Shown here: one piece after another, positions 5,779 to 63,262 of the stretch | Layout: every line of letters begins with the position of its first letter | How positions within the stretch are numbered: position 1 is the stretch's first letter | Assembly: GCA_964016885.1 (NCBI GenBank) | Contig: OZ024747.1 | Coordinates: 69,440,001-69,504,000, forward strand | From: Eledone cirrhosa | Taxonomy: Eukaryota | Length of the DNA: 64,000 nt | Direction: 5' to 3' | Notes under the pieces: model-generated | The model's input: the letters and a program-made list of their open reading frames with translations, nothing else | Database searches by the model: none | What the model was told of the DNA's origin: nothing | Translations under genes and position numbers: made by a program

Positions 5779-8700
5779 TGACCATGCTGTAAAATGGAGG
5801 GGTAGAGAGGGCCCTTGAGTCTAGTAAGACATCCTCTCTAGTGCTAGTGGCACAAATAAAAGCACCCAGTCCATGCTGTAAAGCGGCGCTGGTGTTAGGA
5901 AGGGCATCCAACCAGTGTATCAATGCCAAAAGGCTTATCAGCACAGCAACAAATAGGAACAACAACAAAATATGAAGACGTCGCATCTCAGAGTTGCAAC
6001 ACTTAATGTTGGCACTCTCAGAGGTGCCTCTGCGAGACTAGTCGTAGGCAAACGTCTTAGCTATAAGCTATTCTGGGTAGGTAAGGATGATGGGTTAGGG
6101 GGAGTAGGCATTTTCCTGGCTGAGAAATGGATCAATAAGACAATAGAGGTAGTTCGAGTTAGTAATCGAATAATTAAGCTTAGATTAGTTGTAGGCAAGA
6201 GATTATTGACAATCATCTCGGCCTATGCTCCCCAAGCAGGCCTAGGCAAAGATGAGAAAGACTGCTTTTACGAGCAACTTTTACAAACAACCGCAATGAC
6301 AGAGGACGGAGACATCGTTATGCTAGCAGGAGACTTCAATGGTCATGTTGGACAGCTCCAGGATGGTTACACTGGGGTACATGGTGGGCACAGTTACGGC
6401 TCAAGAAATGAAGAAGGAGTGAGACTTCTTGAATTTTGTGATGCAGGTACATGGACTATTTGCAACACAAACTTCCAGAAACCTGCCAATCACCTAATAA
6501 CCTACAAATCTGGTGAGCACATAAGCCAGATTGACTTCTTACTAGTTAGGCAGCGGGACAGGCAGATAGTGTCTAATACCAAGGCATACCCTGGGGAAGA
6601 ATGTACCCCCACAGCATAGGTTAGTTGTTAGTGATATCTCAGTAAGCAAGAGATGGAATAAGACATATAGGAAGGTGTGGAGAAGAAAGGTCTGGAAGCT
6701 AAAAGCCCTTTCACTAAAATACAAATTTAGGAAAGCCCTTCAAGATGTATATGACGAAAAAGAAGACGATTTAGTGACGTATGACATAGATAATAACTGG
6801 AATTTCTTACGTGACAACTTGCTGCAGGCTACTGATGAAACTTGTGGCTGGAGCAGAGCTCTAACCAGACAGAGAGTGACCTGGTGGTGGAACAGCACAG
6901 TAGATAAGGCCATTAGAGACAAAAGACTAGCATGGAAGGCTTGGAAAAAGGGTGGGAGTAGGGAAGAATATACAGCCACTAAGAGAGAAGCTAGACGTCA
7001 GGTGTACTTAGCACGCAGGGAGGCGGAGAGTAGGAGGTTTGCCAATGTTCTGCGACGGGAAGATCAGAGGCGTGCGGTGTTCCACATTGCAAGGCAGTGT
7101 GTCAATGCAAATCAGGATGTTGTTGGAGATAAATGTGTCTGGGATGATGCCGGTGTACTTAGTGTCACGAATGATCAGAAAAAGGAGGCCTGGAAATGTC
7201 ATTATGAGAGACTGATGAATGTGGAGAACTAATGGGAGAGAAAGAAATTACCCTTAGTAGATCCGACAGAGGGACCAGCTATTGAGATTGACGAATATAG
7301 GGTCCAAGAAGCGATTAGGGAAATGAAAAATGGTAAGGCTGCTGGACCATCGGGAATAGTTGCTGAGATGCTGAAGGCATCAGGGGACGTAGGCACTAAA
7401 CTGGTTGCACGCATCATCAATCAGGCTATATATGATGGTGTCATACCCAAAGACTGGTGCAGCAGTATTCTCATAAATTGCTACAAAGGTAAAGGGGATG
7501 CTCTGGAGAGGAGCAATTATATGGGTATAAAACTGATAGATCAGGTTATGAAAGTGGCAGAAAGGATATTAGCACAGCTAATTAGAGAAAGGGTCAAACT
7601 AGATGAGATGCAGTTTGGTTTTGTGCCTGGGAAGAGTACAACAGATGCCCTCTTCTTGGTGAGACAATTGCAAGAGAGGTTCTTAGAGAAAAATAAGCCA
7701 CTATACTTAGCCTTTGTTGACCTAGAGAAGGCCTTTGATAGGGTACCCCGATCTGTCATCTAGTGGTCCCTAAGGAAGCTAGGTGTTGAGGAATGGCTTA
7801 TGAGGACAGTGCAAACTTTGTACAGAGGTACTCTCAGTAAAGTCAGGGTAGGAATGGAGTTTAGTGAGGAATTCCAGATACAAGTAGGAGTACATCAGTG
7901 TTCGGTCCTCAGCCCGCTCTTGTTCATTATAGTCCTCCAAGCCATAACAGAGGAGTTTAAGACTGGCTGTCCATGGGAACTTCTCTATGCTGAAGATCTG
8001 GTTCATATAGCAGAATCAGTAGAGGAGCTAGAGAATAAATTCTGGCTATGGAAACAGCAGTTGGAAGCAAGAGGACTGAGAGTGAACCTAGCTAAGACAA
8101 AAGTGTTGATGAGTAGAAAAGAGGACAAAACCCTGATTCCGTCAGGGAAATGGCCATGTTCGATATGCAGAAAAGGAACTGGCATAAATTCTATAAAATG
8201 CACACAATGCAGATCCTGGGTACACAAGAGATGTAGCGGGATAGCAGGCAAACTAACAGGTAGGGTGAAATATGTATGCAGTAGATGTACAGGGAAATTA
8301 GACAGTAGAAGTCGCATTGATAGACACATTTTTCAAATGCAGGAGGGCGCTATAGAAGTGGTGGATAGCTTCCGGTACCTAGGAGATCAGATTAGTATGG
8401 GAGGAGCGTATTCCGAGGCCATAGTATCTAGAATAAGGACGGGTTGGAAGAAGTTTAGGGAGCTGCTTCCTCTGTTGACGAAGAAGGGTTTCTCCCTGCG
8501 TACGAAAGGCAGGTTGTATGATGCCTGTGTGAGGAGCGCAATGCTGCATGGTAGTGACACATGAGCAGCAACTGCAGAGGATATGCGACGGCTGGAGAGA
8601 AATGAGGCAAGCATGCTCCGTTGGATGTGCAGTGTAAATGTGCGTGAACGACCCAGCATAAATGTGTTGAGAGAGAAACTGTGTCTGAGGGGGATAGAAT

Positions 8701-37964: not shown

Positions 37965-39726
37965 CGTTTCTGAATTTGTTTAGCAAGATTCTTTATCTGA
38001 AAACGTGTGTTGAAAGCGATATTGTTATACTTTGGGAGGGTCATGTTGCCAATAAGAAACACACGCACCAGTTACTTTCATTTCAATTTATTATAATAAA
38101 TTTATAAATTTAGGAATTTATAAATTTCTGGTTGGTTGGTTGGTTCCACAACCAGATAGTTGTTTATATATTGTCAAAGTTCTTTCGTCACACATTCTGT
38201 GACCTCTTCAGTGACTGGGGATTCTTTTCTTTGTTTTTGTGCCTCTCCTTTGTTCTGTCCTACGCCATTTTGTTTCTGTGTGTGTGTTGTGTGTTCAGTC
38301 TGCGCATGCGCCACATCCAGGTGTCTGTGTGTGTTTATATTCGTTTATTTATTTGTTTACTTACATGTTACTGGTTGGTTGTTTGTTCTATTAATTGTAA
38401 GTTGTGATGTTGCTGTTCCACTCATATTTTCTATTTAATTTTGGTTGTAATTCTTTTATGTTTATTGCCTCTGTGATTTGTCTAAACATTGCGTCTTTTC
38501 TGTGTGTAGATTCTATTTTTATTTCTATGTTCTCTAATTTACCCTTATGTTCTATTTTAGCATGTTGGTAGAGTACAGATGATTCTTTACTATCTTGAAG
38601 GTCTCGCCAGTGTTCATTTATTCGTTCCCCTACACTACGAGCTGTCTCACCTATGTACACTATATTTTTGTCTCTACATTGTCCTTCAGTACATTGTCCT
38701 ATACACTACATTTCTAGTATTACAGTTAATATGGGGGCTTATTTTACAGGTTATACATTTCTTATCTATACAGGGTGGTCTTTGAAAAGGGTATGTCTTG
38801 CTAATAAGTGTTTTTACGGAGGTACCTGGTCTTTCTACTATCTTAATATTGAGTTTATGTTTATCTAGGGCCCTTCTAAATTTGTAAGCTAATTCACCTC
38901 TAGGGGTTGTATCGATGAACATTACACTCTGGTATTTATTGCTATCATACCATGAGTTTATTCTATTAGCCTTATTCCTAGTTCTTTCTATTCTATTCCA
39001 AAATGTGCTCCTATACAAGGGGCAGGTCCCATTTGTGTCATTATTTACCATTTTTTCCCATTTGGTTCTGGCTCCTCTATACACTCTGATTTTATCTCTC
39101 TGATTGTAACCAGAGAACTGCATACAGTGGATGAAGTGTTGTATGTGTCTCTCTAGTTCTTCGGGGTTGCACATGCGGGACACGTTTCTCATCACCCGTA
39201 CCAAATCCGCAATCAGTATGTTGATTTTGGTATGGTCTGAAACAGCTGAGTTTCGGCGGATCAGATGTTTGGAAGTCATGGGTTTGGCATAATGGGAATG
39301 GAGGATTTGTTTTTTGTTATTAATGGTATCTAACCAGAGCTCTGTGTCTAGTACAGGTAATCGATGGTTGGGGTGTTTACTTGGGTAGTCTATAGTAACT
39401 CTAATACTCTGGTGGATGGAGTTAGCTATTTGCTGGATGCTTTCCATTGTGTTTTCTCTAGTTCCTGACTGTTCTCTAGTGGGGGTGACTTAACTACGAT
39501 GTTTATATCGCCAACGTAGCGGGAGTACATTATCAGGGTTAAGGGGTCTTCTAATTGTTCTTTAAGTTTAAGTTTAAGTCTACTGTCCCACCATACCATG
39601 AATAAGTTAGCTATGTCGCCTGCAATGCTAACACCAATGGCTGCTCCTTCCTCTTGAGCATATGTTTTTCCATTAAATTTGAACATATGTTCCTTAAGGG
39701 TTAGTTTTATGCTGGCCCCTACCGCA

Positions 39727-39730
<4 letters not shown>
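37965..39730 (-). mobile_element. 5'-truncated Penelope-like element (RT C-terminal half + GIY-YIG endonuclease + terminal repeat region)
   Basis: ORFs 39426-39686 (FKFNGKTY...EGAAIG, SRYVGD), 38686-39447 (LPVLDT, C..C..C linker) and 38391-38660 (YIGETARS..ERINEH, RQITEA..I) joined by frameshifts; TA arrays at both ends. Confidence 0.9.
38173..38215 (-). ncRNA. Minimal type I hammerhead ribozyme in the Penelope terminal repeat
   Basis: Minus strand: GTCA-CTGAAGA-G-GTCACA(gaatg)TGTGAC-GAAA-GAAC-TT-TGAC; stems I and II pair; same strand as the PLE. Confidence 0.82.
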
Positions 39731-39779
<49 letters not shown>

Positions 39780-40005
39780 TGTGTGTGTGTGTGCATGTGT
39801 ATGCGTGTGTGAGTCCTACTCTACTATCTCAAGTATCAGGTACTCTGTTCAATAATGGTCTAATAGTTTAAAACTGGATCTATTCCGATATAAGTATATA
39901 TAAACCCGTAGAGCAAATATTTATTATTTGTACAGATTAAAAGATTAAGCAAAATATGTCTGCTTTCATCCTAAGCGGGATCATCTAAAACTCTCTCTCT
40001 CCCCC

Positions 40006-47273: not shown

Positions 47274-48195
<922 letters not shown>

Positions 48196-48287
48196 ACTTT
48201 GAACTTTGAATAACTTTGAAATGTTTTGGCCAGTATTGGCCCAGGCCATGTCTAACTTAATAGCACCACCTGGCGAAGTCTTTCAAT

Positions 48288-51200
48288 TCAGAATTTGGGC
48301 ACCATGGCCCATTCGAGAACAGAATTACTGTTTGCGGAGACATATCCGGGTGTGGGTGGTTTGTCCGGGATTACTTGGAGGAATTTGTCCAAAGACTTCT
48401 TGAATTTTGTGTGGTCAGTTTCTGTTTTGACGTGTCCTGGTGTGATGTTGAAGAGAGCAGGGCCGATTGAGGTGAAATAATTGTGCCGTATTGTTGTTAT
48501 GAGTTGCGATTTAGATTTTTGAATGGGACGGATAGCACGGGGCCCAAGCCTTGGGTGTATCTTGAAGGCGATGCCAACATCATTTGGGCAGTGATGATGG
48601 AACATTTTCCACATCATGCAGATAATATAACGCTCACGGCGACGTTGGAGTGAGTAAAGTTTCAGGTTTTCCAATCGACCCCAGTAGTCAAGGTCTGACA
48701 TGCCATCTATCTTTTTCGTGATTGCCCTTTGAGGAGCTTCAAGTTTCATGATACTTTGTTTCGTGTGGGGAGACCACAGTGGACAACAGTATTCAAGGTG
48801 TGGTCGGGCGAAAGTAGAGAAGAGAAGGATAATGGTGCGGGAATCTCTCGACTGGAAGGTTCTGAGGATCCAGGAACACATTCTGCGGGCCATGTCAACT
48901 TTGCTGCTTATATGCGTGGTCCAGCTTATGTTGCTGTCCACGGTTACTCCCAAGTCTCTGATGTTGTTAGATGCCACGAGAGTTTCCCCGGAGGGAAGGG
49001 AGTACGGGAGTTTCAGAGCATCCTCTTTTCCAAAGTGGATCAGTTCGAATTTGTCTTCGTTCAGTAACATGTTGTTCTTTTCTGCCCATTGGGTAACAGC
49101 CAGTAGGTCTGACTGAAGGCTTATCCGGTCATCCACGCCATTGATGACCTTTTGGAGCTTGGAATCATCAGCGAAAATTTTAATGTTGCTGTGTTTGATG
49201 ATGTCAGTGATGTCATTAATATAGATGATGAAGAGAAGTGGGCCCAACACAGTGCCTTGTGGGACTCCACTACTGACTTTGGCTGGGCTTGATTTGACTC
49301 CCTCAACTACAACATGTTGGGTTCTGTTTGACAGGAAGCTCTTGATCCACTGCAGCAGCTTTCCAGTGACACCAATATTGGACAGCTTTCTCAGTAGAAT
49401 GTTATGATCAACCCTGTCAAAGGCCTTGCTGAAATCAAGGTAGATAACATCAGTGTTGGAACCCTCTCCCAAGGCTCTCAAAATGTCATCAAAGTGATGC
49501 AGTAGTTGCGTCAGGCAATCCCTTCCATTACGGAATCCATGCTGGTTGGAGTTCAGCATATTGTTACTCTCAAGGAAGTGGGTCATTCGCGATCTCACCA
49601 CTCGCTCAAATACCTTAATGATATGAGAGGTGAGTGAGATTGGACGGTAATTCACGGCAAGGGATTTGTTTCCCTTTTTGAAAACTGGGACAACAGACTG
49701 GGATAGAAGGTTTTCTGGCACATATCCAGCATCCAGTGAGTTCCGCCACAGATTGGCAAGAGGAGAAGCAAGTTGGTGTTGACACGCCTTCAAGACACAA
49801 GCAGGGAACCTATCGGGACCTACTGCTGAATTATGCTTGATTTCCTTTATTGCCGCCAAGACATCAGGGGCGCCAAACGTTATGTCCGATAAGGTGTAAT
49901 GGGGAGTAACATCGCCGATACAGCCCAGATCGGCCATATCAGGATTGCTGAAAACAGAGCAGTATTGTTTCTGCAGTATCTCACCCATAGTTTTAGCATT
50001 GTCTTGAAGAGTGCCATTTTCATCAATTAGAGGGCCAACAGTAGAGCCAGTGATTTTGTGTTTTTTTGCAAATGAAAAGAACACTTTGGGATTGAGTTTG
50101 ATCTTCTCAATGGCCCAGGCCTCTTCAGCTCTTCTCTGATTGTTGATGAGGGACATTATGTTGTTTTGGAGGTTATGTTTTTTAATCTCTAGTGATGAAA
50201 TGGCAGTCAAGTTGATGTGTTGCTGCTGACAGTATTTCAGATTGTTGATTTTTTTGTTCGTTCTCTTAATTTTTCTGATGAGCGTTTTTCTATTTCTAGG
50301 GATTCTGCTCTTAGATTTGTTTATAGTTCTTAATGGGGTGTGTTTAGCACATATGTTTGTAACAGTGTCCACAAATGTCTGCCAGGACTTTTTGATGTTA
50401 GTGGGTGTATGAGTGTGCGTGAAGGACCAGTCGACATGTGCAAGATCATGACTGATCGCTTCCCAGTTTGCATTGTGGAAATCCATAGCGTCAAACGGAT
50501 GGACAGGAGAAATGACATTGGGTTTGTATATTGGACGGTGGAATCTCAGATCACAGAGAACCATGTCATGATCAGAGAGTAGAGTTTTCTCCACTGCAAT
50601 ATTGTGGATATTGTCAGTGTGATTGCTGAAAATTAAGTCTAGGACGTTTTTGTGGCACCTCGTTGGTTCGAGCACTAGTTGGGATAGGAAGAAATCATCC
50701 ATGAAGTCAAGAAGCGATTCCACAGCTTCCCTGTCAGAGGTTGAGGCAGAAGAACCTGGTGGCAGGGTGTTTGTGGACCAGTCAACTCCGGGGAGGTTGA
50801 AGTCCCCCATCATTAAGATGTTGTCAGGGTGACACTCTTGGATGAAACACTTTATGCTGTTGAGGCATTCCTTGAAGCATGGTACAGGCGTTTGGGGTGG
50901 CCTATAGAGCCCAACTACTAATAGGTTGTTGGTTTGACTGAATACAGTGACTGCCTCACAGTATCCATTAGTGAATATGTTCATAGCCTCTGTTGAGAAA
51001 GAATTATGGACATAAATGGCAGTTCCGCCCTTTCTTCTGCCAGCGCGATCAGCACGGATGGCTTTGAAATTTTTCACTTTCACCTCGGCTTCCAAGTGGA
51101 GGTTACTGAGATGGGTTTCAGTGAGGACGAAGAAAGGGATGTGGTTTGGATGGACATCAATCCAGTCCTCCAGGAATTTGATCTTCCATTTTTGAGTATT

Positions 51201-51308
51201 GGTGGAAGGGCTGATGCCTTGGGCGTTAAGCAAAAATGTAGAGGCGAGAGTGGATGGTTTTAATTGTTTTGGTGTGTTGTTAATTTGTTTGTTTGTTAAT
51301 GGCAGCAA
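48288..51308 (-). CDS. ORF2 of element A: AP endonuclease + reverse transcriptase
   Basis: APE motifs LNAQG, LTETHL, GLYRPP, MGDFN, LDLIF, SDHDMV; RT motifs [43 protein letters not shown]. No stops; the listed start is TTG, not ATG. Confidence 0.95.
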   Translation of the reverse strand: MLPLTNKQINNTPKQLKPSTLASTFLLNAQGISPSTNTQKWKIKFLEDWIDVHPNHIPFFVLTETHLSNLHLEAEVKVKNFKAIRADRAGRRKGGTAIYVHNSFSTEAMNIFTNGYCEAVTVFSQTNNLLVVGLYRPPQTPVPCFKECLNSIKCFIQECHPDNILMMGDFNLPGVDWSTNTLPPGSSASTSDREAVESLLDFMDDFFLSQLVLEPTRCHKNVLDLIFSNHTDNIHNIAVEKTLLSDHDMVLCDLRFHRPIYKPNVISPVHPFDAMDFHNANWEAISHDLAHVDWSFTHTHTPTNIKKSWQTFVDTVTNICAKHTPLRTINKSKSRIPRNRKTLIRKIKRTNKKINNLKYCQQQHINLTAISSLEIKKHNLQNNIMSLINNQRRAEEAWAIEKIKLNPKVFFSFAKKHKITGSTVGPLIDENGTLQDNAKTMGEILQKQYCSVFSNPDMADLGCIGDVTPHYTLSDITFGAPDVLAAIKEIKHNSAVGPDRFPACVLKACQHQLASPLANLWRNSLDAGYVPENLLSQSVVPVFKKGNKSLAVNYRPISLTSHIIKVFERVVRSRMTHFLESNNMLNSNQHGFRNGRDCLTQLLHHFDDILRALGEGSNTDVIYLDFSKAFDRVDHNILLRKLSNIGVTGKLLQWIKSFLSNRTQHVVVEGVKSSPAKVSSGVPQGTVLGPLLFIIYINDITDIIKHSNIKIFADDSKLQKVINGVDDRISLQSDLLAVTQWAEKNNMLLNEDKFELIHFGKEDALKLPYSLPSGETLVASNNIRDLGVTVDSNISWTTHISSKVDMARRMCSWILRTFQSRDSRTIILLFSTFARPHLEYCCPLWSPHTKQSIMKLEAPQRAITKKIDGMSDLDYWGRLENLKLYSLQRRRERYIICMMWKMFHHHCPNDVGIAFKIHPRLGPRAIRPIQKSKSQLITTIRHNYFTSIGPALFNITPGHVKTETDHTKFKKSLDKFLQVIPDKPPTPGYVSANSNSVLEWAMVPKF

Positions 51309-52480
51309 TGGGAGTTTGTGCAGTGGGGTGATAGTGGAGGGTGGTGCTGGGTGATAGCTCGAATGTTTTTTTCCAGTTCTTTTGCCAGATTCATTATGGC
51401 TAAAAAAGAGGAAGAAGTTTCCTGTTTAGAAGACTGTTGGTGACTGTGGTAGTGGTTATTTTTATGTAGGTTATGGTTTTTGTTTTTGCTTTTATTTTTA
51501 ATTTTATTTTCATTTATCCGACGGGTCCCCGGGAGATGGGTAAAGGGACAATCCCGGTCTAAACACAATCTGTCTCGCAGGGAAAAACGGCAGATTTGTG
51601 GATTCCTTGTTTGAGTTATTGGTGGTTGTGTTGGTGTTAAATTAGAGTATGTATTATGGTGGTGGCTGTTTGTGGGGATAGATCGTTTTGTCCTAGGTAA
51701 ATGGGTGAATTTGCAGCCACTATCCGTACATATTCTATAGCGTAGAGAGTAGCGGCAAATGATGGGGTTTCGAGTGGGTGGGTATATGGGTGTGGGTGTT
51801 GTGAGAGGTGTAGATGATGGTTTGGGTAGGATTTGACGACCTTTGTGGACTGTGGGAGGGAGAGTTCTTGTTCTGGTATTAGAAGGTAAATTCCTTGACA
51901 TAGCAGTAGACAAAAATGTTGTAGTAGTAGTAGTAGGCAGAGATGTTGGCAGTGGTGATGATTGGACTGCTGGGCCAGAGAAAGGATGTGGCGTTTCATG
52001 CTGTGAGACAGAGGCTACTGGGGGGTCAATAGTTTCATTTAGTAGATCGGCCATTGTTGATGAATCAAGGAGTGGTTCACACTGTTGTTGTTGCTGTTGT
52101 TGATGTTGTTGTTGTAGCTGTTGTTGATGTTGTTGTTGTAGCTGTTGTTGTTGTTGCTGTTGTAGCTGCTGTTGTTGTTGTTGTTGCTGTTGTAGCTGCT
52201 GTTGTTGTTGTTGCTGCTGCTGGACAGCATTCGAAGAGAAAACACACCGTAGTTTATCCAAATGTTTATTGATTAATTTAAAAGCAATTTCGATTTGCTT
52301 TAATTTATTTTGAATCTGTTGTTCAGATCGAGTTTTCAAAAATTGAACTGTACGTTTAGCAATGTCGTTCAGAGATGAAGCATCTATATTTTCTGTTTGG
52401 GAAAGGCAATGCCATGTGTTTATTAGAATGTCGATTTCATTATCAGACCAGTTCTGTTTGGATTTTTGCTGGTTAGCCAT
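51296..52480 (-). CDS. ORF1 of element A: N-terminal Myb/SANT-like (trihelix-type) domain, polyQ tract, two CCCH zinc fingers
   Basis: ATG-initiated 394-aa ORF; WSDNEIDILINTW...RSEQQIQNKLKQI; polyQ at about 52084-52221; C-x8-C-x4-C-x3-H at 51701-51757 and 51536-51592. Confidence 0.85.
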   Translation of the reverse strand: MANQQKSKQNWSDNEIDILINTWHCLSQTENIDASSLNDIAKRTVQFLKTRSEQQIQNKLKQIEIAFKLINKHLDKLRCVFSSNAVQQQQQQQQQLQQQQQQQQQLQQQQQQQLQQQHQQQLQQQHQQQQQQQCEPLLDSSTMADLLNETIDPPVASVSQHETPHPFSGPAVQSSPLPTSLPTTTTTTFLSTAMSRNLPSNTRTRTLPPTVHKGRQILPKPSSTPLTTPTPIYPPTRNPIICRYSLRYRICTDSGCKFTHLPRTKRSIPTNSHHHNTYSNLTPTQPPITQTRNPQICRFSLRDRLCLDRDCPFTHLPGTRRINENKIKNKSKNKNHNLHKNNHYHSHQQSSKQETSSSFLAIMNLAKELEKNIRAITQHHPPLSPHCTNSHCCH

Positions 52481-52491
52481 TCTAGTTTTGA

Positions 52492-52947
52492 GTGTGTGTG
52501 TGTTTTAGTTAAGTATTTCAATATATATATATTTTTTTTTTTAAATTTATTTTTGATTTATTTTTGTTTTTTTGTTTTTCTTGTGTGTGAGTGAGAAGCG
52601 TATATATATAAATATGAGTATATATATATATATATATGTATATTCTGGTTATTTGAAATTAATTAAGTTAATGAAAAGACGAAAGTATATAATAATAATT
52701 TGTAGTTAAAGGAAAATGTACTCACAAGTTCGTGTGTGTGTGTTTTAGTTAAGTATTTCAATATATATATATTTTTTTTAAATTTATTTTTGTTTTTTGT
52801 TTTTCTTGTGTGTGAGTGAGAAGCGTATATATATAAATATGAGTATATATATATATATATATGTATATTCTGGTTATTTGAAATTAATGAAAAGACGAAA
52901 GTATATAATAATAATTTGTAGTTAAAGGAAAATGTACTCACAAGTTC
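52492..52947 (-). repeat. Two tandem 5'UTR monomers of element A (about 240 and 216 bp)
   Basis: gtgtgtgtgtgttttagttaagtatttca...aatgtactcacaagttc occurs at 52492-52731 and 52732-52947. Confidence 0.9.
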
Positions 52948-52966
52948 GAAAACACGTGGTTTCAAA

Positions 52967-55920
<2,954 letters not shown>

Positions 55921-58900
55921 CGGGGACCCGTCGGACAAATGAAAATAAAATTAAAAATAAAAGCAAAAACAAAAACCATAACCTACATAAAAATAACCAC
56001 TACCACAGTCACCAACAGTCTTCTAAACAGGAAACTTCTTCCTCTTTTTTAGCCATAATGAATCTGGCAAAACAACTGGAAAAAAACATTCGAGCTATCA
56101 CCCAGCACCACCCTCCACTATCACCCCACTGCACAAACTCCCATTGCTGCCATTAACAAACAAACAAATTAACAACACACCAAAACAATTAAAACCATCC
56201 ACTCTCGCCTCTACATTTTTGCTTAACGCCCAAGGCATCAGCCCTTCCACCAATACTCAAAAATGGAAGATCAAATTCCTGGAGGACTGGATTGATGTCC
56301 ATCCAAACCACATCCCTTTCTTCGTCCTCACTGAAACCCATCTCAGTAACCTCCACTTGGAAGCCGAGGTGAAAGTGAAAAATTTCAAAGCCATCCGTGC
56401 TGATCGCGCTGGCAGAAGAAAGGGCGGAACTGCCATTTATGTCCATAATTCTTTCTCAACAGAGGCTATGAACATATTCACTAATGGATACTGTGAAGCA
56501 GTCACTGTATTCAGTCAAACCAACAACCTATTAGTAGTTGGGCTCTATAGGCCACCCCAAACGCCTGTACCATGCTTCAAGGAATGCCTCAACAGCATAA
56601 AGTGTTTCATCCAAGAGTGTCACCCTGACAACATCTTAATGATGGGGGACTTCAACCTCCCCGGAGTTGACTGGTCCACAAACAGCCTGCCACCAGGTTC
56701 TTCTGCCTCAACCTCTGACAGGGAAGCTGTGGAATCGCTTCTTGACTTCATGGATGATTTCTTCCTATCCCAACTGGTGCTCGAACCAACGAGGTGCCAC
56801 AAAAACGTCCTAGACTTAATTTTCAGCAATCACACTGACAATATCCACAATATTGCAGTGGAGAAAACTCTACTCTCTGATCATGACATGGTTCTCTGTG
56901 ATCTGAGATTCCACCGTCCAATATACAAACCCAATGTCATCTCTCCTGTCCATCCGTTTGACGCTATGGATTTCCACAATGCAAACTGGGAAGCGATCAG
57001 TCATGATCTTGCACATGTCGACTGGTCCTTCACGCACACTCATACACCCACTAACATCAAAAAGTCCTGGCAGACATTTGTGGACACTGTTACAAACATA
57101 TGTGCTAAACACACCCCATTAAGAACTATAAACAAATCTAAGAGCAGAATCCCTAGAAATAGAAAAACGCTCATCAGAAAAATTAAGAGAACGAACAAAA
57201 AAATCAACAAGCTGAAATACTGTCAGCAGCAACACATCAACTTGACTGCCATTTCATCACTAGAGATTAAAAAACATAACCTCCAAAACAACATAATGTC
57301 CTTCATCAACAATCAGAGAAGAGCTGAAGAGGCCTGGGCCATTGAGAAGATCAAACTCAATCCCAAAGTGTTCTTTTCATTTGCAAAAAAAACACAAAAT
57401 CACTGGCTCTACTGTTGGCCCTCTAATTGATGAAAATGGCACTCTTCAAGACAATGCTAAAACCATGGGTGAGATACTGCAGAAACAATACTGCTCTGTT
57501 TTCAGCAATCCTGATATGGCCGATCTGGGCTGTATCGGCGATGTTACTCCCCATTACACCTTATCGGACATAACGTTTGGCGCCCCTGATGTCTTGGCGG
57601 CAATAAAGGAAATCAAGCATAATTCAGCAGTAGGTCCCGATAGGTTCCCTGCTTGCGTCTTGAAGGCGTGTCAACACCAACTTGCATCTCCTCTTGCCAA
57701 TCTGTGGCGGAACTCACTGGATGCTGGATATGTGCCAGAAAACCTTCTATCCCAGTCTGTTGTCCCAGTTTTCAAAAAGGGAAACAAATCCCTTGCCGTG
57801 AATTACCGTCCAATCTCACTCACCTCTCATATCATTAAGGTATTTGAGCGAGTGGTGAGATCGCGAATGACCCACTTCCTTGAGAGTAACAATATGCTGA
57901 ACTCCAACCAGCATGGATTCCGTAATGGAAGGGATTGCCTGACGCAGCTACTGCATCACTTTGATGACATTTTGAGAGCCTTGGGAGAGGGTTCCAACAC
58001 TGATGTTATCTACCTTGATTTCAGCAAGGCCTTTGACAGGGTTGATCATAACATTCTACTGAGAAAGCTGTCCAATATTGGTGTCACTGGAAAGCTGCTG
58101 CAGTGGATCAAGAGCTTCCTGTCAAACAGAATCCAACATGTTGTAGTTGAGGGAGTCAAATCAAGCCCAGCCAAAGTCAGTAGTGGGGTCCCACAAGGCA
58201 CTGTGTTGGGCCCACTTCTCTTCATCATCTATATTAATGACATCACTGACATCATCAAACACAGCAACATTAAAATTTTCGCTGATGATTCCAAGCTCCA
58301 AAAGGTCATCAATGGCGTGGATGACCGGATAAGCCTTCAGTCAGACCTACTGGCTGTTACCCAATGGGCAGAAAAGAACAACATGTTACTGAACGAAGAC
58401 AAATTCGAACTGATCCACTTTGGAAAAGAGGATGCTCTGAAACTCCCGTACTCCCTTCCCTCCGGGGAAACTCTCGTGGCATCTAACAACATCAGAGACT
58501 TGGGAGTAACCGTGGACAGCAACATAAGCTGGACCACGCATATAAGCAGCAAAGTTGACATGGCCCGCAGAATGTGTTCCTGGATCCTCAGAACCTTCCA
58601 GTCGAGAGATTCCCGCACCATTATCCTTCTCTTCTCTACTTTCGCCCGACCACACCTTGAATACTGTTGTCCACTGTGGTCTCCCCACACGAAACAAAGT
58701 ATCATGAAACTTGAAGCTCCTCAAAGGGCAATCACGAAAAAGATAGATGGCATGTCAGACCTTGACTACTGGGGTCGATTAGAAAACCTGAAACTTTACT
58801 CACTCCAACGTCGCCGTGAGCGTTATATTATCTGCATGATGTGGAAAATGTTCCATCATCACTGCCCAAATGATGTTGGCATCGCCTTCAAGATACACCC

Positions 58901-59250
58901 AAGGCTTGGGCCCCGTGCTATCCGTCCCATTCAAAAATCTAAATCGCAACTCATAACAACAATACGGCACAATTATTTCACCTCAATCGGCCCTGCTCTC
59001 TTCAACATCACACCAGGACACGTCAAAACAGAAACTGACCACACAAAATTCAAGAAGTCTTTGGACAAATTCCTCCAAGTAATCCCGGACAAACCACCCA
59101 CACCCGGATATGTCTCCGCAAACAGTAATTCTCTTCTCGAATGGGCCATGGTGCCCAAATCCTGAATTGAAAGACTTCGCCAGGTGGTGCTATTAAGTTA
59201 GACATGGCCTGGGCCAATACTGGCCAAAACATTTCAAAGTTATTCAAAGT

Positions 59251-59251
<1 letters not shown>
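55921..59251 (+). mobile_element. 5'-truncated copy of the same LINE family (element A'), inverted relative to A
   Basis: About 99.5% identical to the reverse complement of 48196-51531; begins inside ORF1 at the end of the second CCCH finger; same 3' tail. Confidence 0.95.
56144..59165 (+). pseudogene. ORF2 of A' with a single +1 frameshift in an A-run (about 57385-57392)
   Basis: ORFs 56144-57430 and 57342-59165 join into the A ORF2 sequence; 8 A here versus 7 in A (could also be a homopolymer sequencing error). Confidence 0.88.
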
Positions 59252-59810
<559 letters not shown>

Positions 59811-60992
59811 TTTACTCTTTTACTCTTTTACCTGTTTCAGCCATCCGGCTGAGGCCATGCTGGGACACCGCCCTTGTCGCTACACATTTTATCTCCAGCC
59901 TGTATAGGTTGGCCACTGGTGTAGGAGGGAGTTTGTTGCTGCTGCCCTTAGGTTTCCCTCGTGTCTTGCTGTGGGCTCATCCGGGATCCTGGATAACAAG
60001 GTGTCGGGATGTTTCTTAAAGACATCCACCTCCACGTCATGCAAGTCTCGCACATGCCTCGGCAGCCTGTTGAAGAGTTGAGGGCCCTTGAATCCCAGGC
60101 TATTGCAATACCTGCTCCTTATTCTAGATGTGGAAGACGGGACCTTTGGCACCACACAGTGACGTCCTGTTCGACGGTTGGTCCAGCTCCCAATGCCAAA
60201 GTTTGGTGCTAGTCCCTCCAGGATTTTCCACATGTAGATCACTGCGTATCTCTCCCGTCTTCGCTCCAAGGAGTAGAGGTTCAGTTCCTTCAGCCTCTCC
60301 CAGTAGCTTGTCTCCCTCATCTTGGCAATCCTCTTGGTGTAGCTTCGCTGGATTGCCTCAAGCTCTGTGGTTAGTTTGACACTATGGGGTGACCACAGCT
60401 GGTAGCAGTAGTCCAGGCGGCTTAGGACAAAAGTCCTCCACAGTGTCAACATGGTGTCTCGATCTCTTGTAAGGAAAGTCCTCAAGATCCAGCCAGCAAA
60501 TCGTCTACATGCTGTCGCCACCTTCATGATGTGTGAAGAAAAAGATGCATCATCGCTCATGTCTATGCCCAGGTCTCGTATCGATTTTGACACGGGAATA
60601 TCGGTCCCTCCTGGTCCTGTGTAGCTGTGTTCCGCTATATTTGTGTTTGTGTTTGCAGGTTTGTATTGTAGGGCTTGGAATTTGCCAGCATTAAACTGCA
60701 TGTTGTTTTCTTCCGCCCATCTGTATATGGCATCCAGATCCTGCTGTAAGAGGGCAGCGTCAGCCGGGTTTTTGATTGCCTGTGCTACCTTAGTGTCATC
60801 AGCATAGCTAGTGAAGGATGTTGTTGCATGCACCACAGAGGGCATGTCCGAGAGAGCCACCAAAAACAGTAGTGGTCCCAGGACTGTCCCCTGAGGCACC
60901 CCACTTGTTATCGGTGTTTCCCTCGAGAGGGCCCCATTTGCTGCGACTGCCTGGCTTCTGTCCCTCAGGAAGCCATGCAGCCACTCACCTAC
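59811..60992 (-). mobile_element. 5'-truncated CR1-group LINE of a second family (element B): RT C-terminal half + 3'UTR
   Basis: Open frame 59889-60992 with [28 protein letters not shown]; 3' tail of (GTAAAAGA)n. Confidence 0.93.
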
Positions 60993-62890: not shown

Positions 62891-63262
62891 CATTGGGAGC
62901 TGGACCAACCGTCGAACAGGACGTCACTGTGTGGTGCCAAAGGTCCCGTCTTCCACATCTAGAATAAGGAGCAGGTATTGCAATAGCCTGGGATTCAAGG
63001 GCCCTCAACTCTTCAACAGGCTGCCGAGGCATCTGCGAGACTTGCATGACGTGGAGGTGGATGTCTTTAAGAAACATCTCGACACCTTGTTGTCCAGGAT
63101 CCTGGATGAGCCCACAGCAAGACACGAGGGAAACCTAAGGGCAGCAGCAACAAACTCCCTCCTACACCAGTGGCCAACCTATACAGGCTGGAGATAAAAT
63201 GTGTAGCAACAAGGGCGGTGCCCCAGCATGGCCTCAGCCGGATGGCTGAAACAGGTAAAAGA
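62887..63262 (+). mobile_element. Short 3' fragment of family B (element B'), inverted relative to B
   Basis: About 6 differences in 375 bp from the reverse complement of about 59824-60199; ends GGCTGAAACAGGTAAAAGA. Confidence 0.93.

Follow-up and report, generated by a model that had tools for sequence, protein, structure and literature searches.

How is the enzymatic protein of a two-gene retrotransposon produced when its reading frame offers no start codon ahead of the first enzymatic domain? The question is raised by a LINE on the minus strand of a 64,000-nt stretch of the Eledone cirrhosa genome (contig OZ024747.1, positions 69,440,001 to 69,504,000; hereafter the window), in which ORF2 overlaps the end of ORF1 in the -1 frame. 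An initial annotation of the window pointed to two slippery heptamers in the overlap and proposed that -1 frameshifting would yield a single Myb-CCCH-APE-RT polypeptide. Based on comparison with diverged relatives, ORF2 is probably made as an ORF1-ORF2 fusion by programmed -1 ribosomal frameshifting at the first of these, U UUU UUA. The features of the element are collected in Table 1.

Table 1. Features of the LINE (copy A) and its second copy (A'), in window coordinates
Feature	Position	Strand	Remark
5' UTR	52492..52948	-	tandem duplication, units ~220-240 nt, 90% identical
ORF1	51296..52480	-	394 codons from ATG 52480, stop TAA 51298-51296
Three-helix N-terminal domain of ORF1	52259..52456	-	weakly Myb/SANT-like; PF13837 E 0.0027, below cut-off
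Poly-Gln tract of ORF1	52082..52222	-	
C-x8-C-x4-C-x3-H finger 1	51701..51757	-	read from sequence
C-x8-C-x4-C-x3-H finger 2	51536..51592	-	aligned with relatives' third finger
ORF1/ORF2 overlap	51296..51425	-	130 nt, ORF2 at -1 to ORF1
U UUU UUA, predicted -1 shift site	51401..51407	-	ORF1 codons TCT TTT TTA
A AAA AAC, second phased heptamer	51365..51371	-	not conserved, at most a back-up site
TTG CTG in ORF2 frame, just before ORF1 stop	51303..51308	-	possible non-AUG starts; not conserved in relatives
ORF2 frame	48288..51425	-	1045 codons between stops, encoding linker, APE endonuclease and RT
3' UTR	48194..48287	-	short; ends in TTCAAAG(TTA) repeats, then (TA)n
Copy A'	55921..59251	+	5'-truncated, without ORF1 start; extra A near 57390 breaks ORF2

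Results

Identity of the element

Judged by its sequence, the element is a LINE of the CR1 clade (Jockey superfamily), the RT likeness having been assessed by eye and not from a reference tree. It has the features of the clade, an APE endonuclease ahead of the RT (Pfam matches at E 6e-14 and E 4e-31, respectively) and a short tandem repeat at the 3' end. The closest named element, O.sinensis_33_LINE, likewise combines an APE-RT ORF2 with short tandem 3' repeats and is classed as Jockey/CR1 in a table of PMC10294476; a by-eye comparison with the supplementary alignment of that paper gives 4 RT differences over the ~100 residues shown. The passages on it in PMC10294476 give no account of ORF2 translation. 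Membership in Proto2/RTEX was dropped on RT motifs, the Proto2 rows of the PMC10294476 alignment being clearly different. The R2 clade was excluded as well, since the window element has two ORFs and an APE domain and R2 has a single ORF with a C-terminal restriction-like endonuclease.

ORF1 lies in an open frame of 402 codons (51296-52504, minus strand), and a homologue search with the window ORF1 gave no match. The Myb domain that the initial annotation placed at its N-terminus proved a weak call only: the match scores 18.5 bits against a Pfam cut-off of 27 (the Atlas giving no more than a lead), fold searches with the domain gave no clear match, and the relatives described below have PHD-like fingers there instead, above the Pfam cut-off in 1/6, weaker in 4/6 and absent in 1/6. 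The relatives also carry three CCCH fingers to the window's two. On a common CCCH-plus-helix scaffold, then, the N-terminus is Myb-like in the window and PHD-like in the relatives, an apparent domain swap. The word CCCH does not appear in the ORF1 survey PMC4120745.

GTGAGT, resembling a splice donor, occurs in each unit of the 5' UTR duplication (52941, 52725), and a TAG stands just 5' of the ORF1 ATG; an intron within the 5' UTR (52492-52948, minus strand) is possible.

The overlap and its two heptamers

The reading frames described in the initial annotation were confirmed (51296-52504 and 48288-51425, minus strand): ORF2 has no ATG ahead of the endonuclease and overlaps ORF1 at -1 over 130 nt. 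Its first ATG, at 50984, is residue 148 of the open frame (108 counting from the TTG at 51308) and falls 81 codons past the conserved Asn of the endonuclease at 51227. Therefore, an ORF2 started at AUG would be without that Asn and without the conserved Glu at 51119, which is invariant in the alignment; we take both residues to be catalytic, as in other APE domains. The -1 frame opens 18 nt ahead of T TTT TTA. For the window by itself, an open -1 stretch of this kind could arise by chance (P ~0.18).

T TTT TTA and A AAA AAC are both phased to the ORF1 codons, as originally claimed; the 402-codon ORF1 frame contains no other strict XXX YYY Z site in phase. Their presence in both copies also held (56045-56051 and 56081-56087 in A'). 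What failed was the value of this as evidence: A' is near-identical to A (99.46%; over 3331 nt the two differ by 17 substitutions and one indel), 5'-truncated and broken in ORF2, so that retention there says nothing about selection on either heptamer.

Conservation of the predicted shift site in close relatives

An endonuclease pattern, independent of the ORF1/ORF2 junction, retrieved 11 metagenome loci, and ORF2 is at -1 to ORF1 in all of them, with overlaps of 202-325 nt. After near-duplicates (L011, L014) were dropped, nine distinct relatives remained, with 36-51% endonuclease identity to the window, giving 10 elements with the window's own. The endonuclease alignment matched neither viral contigs nor genome contigs; five remote RT matches in viral contigs were left out of the comparison.

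A protein-only alignment places the Phe-Leu encoded by the U UUU UUA site in the same columns in 10/10 elements, where a conserved amphipathic helix predicted for ORF1 begins with it. The distance from the opening of the -1 frame to this pair is 3-111 nt, and at most 42 nt in 9/10. At the site, Phe-Leu is coded TTT TTA in 8/10 elements, compared with 0/40 other Phe-Leu pairs of the same elements (Fisher 8e-8, a value that overstates independence as the 10 elements form three subclades); TTA makes up 8% of Leu codons overall. The heptamer is T TTT TTA in six elements and G TTT TTA, with an imperfect first position, in two (L008, L009). The other two, L006 and L016, are sisters to the window element in the tree and carry G GAT TTT one codon upstream in place of TTT TTA. 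Pea enation mosaic virus naturally shifts at G_GAU_UUU (PMC5009743). Three ORF1 proteins (P0166, P0168, P0169) have Glu-Asp-Phe followed by Leu, Gln or Arg, the variation to be expected if a G GAU UUU site freed the Leu, as judged from proteins whose DNA was not seen.

The first ORF2 ATG falls past the conserved Asn in 8/10 elements. An in-frame ATG ahead of the Asn is found in L012 and L013, and also in L019, one of the remoter elements discussed below; in these, AUG initiation could serve.

A AAA AAC, by contrast, is absent at the window's position in 9/9 close relatives. Among four contig runs compared, X20 represents a diverged family in which 805 of 1310 depth (6 contigs) carries another base at 51368, breaking A AAA AAC, with no difference listed at 51401-51407; eight of its contigs match the window up to 51409 and are unlike it upstream. 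Runs X8 and X13 gave mostly short low-complexity matches. No joint at 51400 was seen in the runs, whose contigs are not recorded as RNA and therefore carry no weight for or against splicing. Conservation thus supported the predicted frameshift at U UUU UUA and went against A AAA AAC, which leaves U UUU UUA as the candidate site.

The -1 frame is kept open downstream of the site

The site lies 105-285 nt ahead of the ORF1 stop. From site to stop the -1 frame contains 0 stops against 26.4 expected under synonymous resampling; upstream of the site it contains 56 against 66 expected. Likewise, in 11 elements (the 10 plus L019), third-position T was found at 0/90 places where it would create a -1 stop and at 105/431 others in the same overlaps (Fisher 4e-10, again with subclades that are not fully independent). 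The overlap combines an open -1 frame and nucleotide conservation beyond amino-acid need with a heptamer of the form X XXY YYZ in phase with the upstream ORF.

No consistent RNA structure downstream of the site

The initial annotation had seen no convincing downstream pseudoknot and suggested folding the downstream region; folding agrees and shows no structure. Downstream z-scores range from -1.3 to +1.4 in the 10 elements and the RNAalifold consensus has 0 pairs. A simple pseudoknot scan found no H-type pseudoknot in the window; 3/11 elements reached the 4% level, with only 25 shuffles and with differing geometries. Taken together, Rfam, local folding, consensus folding and the pseudoknot scan gave nothing consistent downstream of the site, and at the level of local structure no classical 3' stem-loop or pseudoknot was found 5-9 nt downstream.

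Remoter elements and protein-only relatives

A further 14 loci came from genome contigs, of which seven reach the junction (L018, L019, L020, L021, L022, L024, L026). All 14 contigs (L017-L030) are eukaryotic-type LINE contigs inside bacterial and archaeal genome assemblies (MAGs), likely as contamination. L018 and L019 have -1 overlaps with a phased A AAA AAC 6 nt and 21 nt, respectively, after the frame opens, sites picked by after-the-fact scanning; the background of such heptamers is 6 in 3623 non-overlap ORF1 codons. L019 has a CCCH-type ORF1 without the Phe-Leu. L018 has another type of ORF1, with four other such heptamers outside the overlap, and its first Met is at residue 174.

The remaining five are CR1/L2-like. 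In L020 (2480-2541), L022 (271-323) and L026 (99-283) the ORF1/ORF2 overlap is +1, and none of these three overlaps holds a phased heptamer; L020 and L022 have a long linker ahead of the endonuclease. In L021 (350-365) and L024 (1227-1242), ORF2 is in frame with ORF1 behind a single TGA followed by CAA, which resembles a stop-readthrough context.

Among 17 protein-only relatives with at least 60 residues before the Asn, seven have Phe-Phe plus a residue able to start with A, where ~1.7 would be expected; among them is P0095, a gene model from a crab. Six proteins came up in a search for long fusions of ORF1 and ORF2, and all are plain ORF1s, which weighs little. One protein, P0109, from a 3400-nt ENA contig whose DNA was not seen, joins a CCCH-like finger to the APE domain in one frame; it is possibly a natural ORF1-ORF2 fusion, or else a copy with an indel.

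Discussion

A proposed frameshift route to ORF2

Comparison establishes the frames and their phase, the lack of an upstream AUG, the conservation of a heptamer that allows slipping where the open -1 frame begins, and the avoidance of -1 stops beyond it. What we infer is that ribosomes slip there, how often they do, and whether the fused product remains intact. Under the proposed mechanism, most ribosomes would read ORF1 to its stop, giving a 394-aa protein with a short helix predicted at its end. A minority, having slipped by one base into the -1 frame at the Phe-Leu, would continue through a low-complexity linker into the endonuclease and RT. The predicted fusion would have 1397 residues (360 + 1037 codons), with the last ORF1 helix replaced by the linker to the endonuclease. 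Given that no RNA stimulator was found, slips are probably rare, which would be in keeping with far more ORF1p than RT. Such fusions are plausible since CR1 elements that carry a PHD and APE in one frame have been described, and in P0109 the CCCH-like finger is likewise in frame with APE.

More generally, we lean towards the view, held with moderate confidence, that in a broad invertebrate branch of CR1s, perhaps even beyond it within CR1, the endonuclease-RT is produced solely in Gag-Pol fashion, fused to ORF1. This would involve -1 frameshifting at interchangeable heptamers (U UUU UUA, G GAU UUU, A AAA AAC) with no local RNA structure, the C-terminal helix of ORF1 being swapped for an enzyme tether.

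Alternative explanations

One alternative is that ribosomes terminate at the ORF1 stop and restart ORF2 at a non-AUG codon (TTG at 51308 or CTG at 51305) as in L1 or SART1, the heptamer merely coding a conserved Phe-Leu. These codons sit 10 and 7 nt ahead of the stop, the ORF2 AUG of L1 can be replaced by any sense codon (PMC1965478), and reinitiation has been reported for SART1 and proposed for L1 (PMC5972666). However, restarting at the stop leaves unexplained both the bias towards TTT TTA and the 105-285 nt of open -1 frame ahead of the stop. Near-cognate codons have no common position among the elements, and L007 has no ATG, CTG, GTG, TTG or ACG between frame opening and Asn (ATH not counted). 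The motif TGGGA, which we take to be the core of the calicivirus TURBS, is found between site and stop in 0/11 elements, and no SART1-type AUG overlaps or adjoins the ORF1 stop in the ORF2 frame. We therefore regard termination and restart as improbable. Splicing would be another way to enter the ORF2 frame, with the T-run and following AG (cttcttcctcttttttAG, 51417-51400) as acceptor. In the window cttcttcctcttttttAG does resemble a good acceptor; TTA G recurs in 4/10 elements, in two more a TAG follows 9 nt later in that phase, and the 5' UTR offers GTGAGT donors at 52941 and 52725. Yet at the site AG is missing from that phase in 4/10 elements, the L018 and L019 sites are A-rich, and a donor scan inside ORF1 found none. 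By reading, the element has no ATG ahead of the 5' UTR donors, so splicing from these would give ORF2 no start, and a spliced origin of ORF2 appears very unlikely.

Slippage by RNA polymerase on the T-run, adding a U in a minority of transcripts, would give the same fusion and the same avoidance of stops, and the run in the window is 6 T. Pol II slippage generally needs longer runs, though, and the T-runs here are only 4-6. In the G GAT TTT lineages the run is shortened to 4 while tRNA re-pairing is kept, which fits the ribosome better than the polymerase; transcriptional slippage thus seems even less likely than splicing. Least probable of all is that the slip occurs in the window mainly at A AAA AAC (51371-51365). 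This heptamer is canonical and correctly phased, is among the most shift-prone of those listed in PMC5009743, and is the one present in L018 and L019, but its absence at that position from the nine close relatives and its disruption at 51368 in run X20 argue against it.

Comparison with known systems

The proposed frameshift at U UUU UUA has its nearest counterparts in viruses. HIV-1 gag-pol (U_UUU_UUA) and the umbravirus site G_GAU_UUU have the same heptamers in the same phase as the CR1 elements (PMC5009743), and in HIV-1 gag-pol, too, a structural ORF is overlapped at -1 by the ORF bearing the RT. Unlike HIV-1, the CR1 elements are non-LTR, have their site 105-285 nt before the ORF1 stop and showed no 3' stem-loop or pseudoknot in our analyses.

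Among LINEs, the window element resembles SART1 and L1 in being a bicistronic APE-type element with ORF2 made from the ORF1 mRNA. In SART1 (UAAUG stop-start) and L1, ORF2 translation starts at or past the ORF1 stop (PMC5972666, PMC3708506), whereas in the window element AUG is lacking up to the conserved Asn and the -1 overlap stays open over a long stretch. Production of ORF2 in bicistronic LINEs has been described as unclear (PMC3708506). In the literature covered, the LINEs tested use reinitiation or 2A recoding. The latter (StopGo), present in CR1, L2, Crack and Ingi LINEs, likewise recodes the start region of ORF2 and occurs in the same clade, but it divides a single frame; the frameshift proposed here would join two. 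Single-ORF PHD-APE-RT CR1s also place an ORF1-type domain in frame with APE. Frameshifting has been proposed in non-LTR elements for Paramecium groups 1-2 (+1) and for the gag of Drosophila HeT-A, which differ from the present case in being +1 or gag-internal and in having, as far as the available descriptions go, no conserved heptamer. Older frameshift proposals concern Dictyostelium DRE and the overlaps of R1 and vertebrate CR1. The literature searched, outside which lie most subscription papers and Repbase Reports, contains no report of a -1 heptamer conserved in CR1 or in any other LINE; older proposals of one may exist.

R2 encodes a restriction-like nuclease in one ORF, with N-terminal nucleic-acid-binding modules on the same chain as RT and nuclease. 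The proposed fusion would be alike in placing such modules on the RT and nuclease chain. The R2-like link between DNA-binding domain and nuclease drawn in the initial annotation stands as a loose analogy only, since the Myb call is weak and the relatives are PHD-like.

If true, retrovirus-style -1 frameshifting would be a further LINE route to ORF2, beside reinitiation and 2A recoding. It would fix the ratio of ORF1 protein to RT and keep the RT attached to its own ORF1 protein, hence to the cis-assembled RNP, and the annotated ORF2 proteins of the group would start at the wrong place. The elements also offer a family of natural shift sites without an evident RNA stimulator.

Genomic setting

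Copies A and A' are both embedded in (TA)n. A second, related CR1-type family has two 5'-truncated copies in opposite orientations (59840-60990, minus strand; 62893-63260, plus strand), and these share one (TA)n tract with A and A'. The clustering of both families suggests (TA)n targeting or a hotspot. Elsewhere in the window, translations reveal a decayed RTE-like LINE (5957-8564, plus strand) and a decayed Penelope-like element (38391-39815, minus strand).
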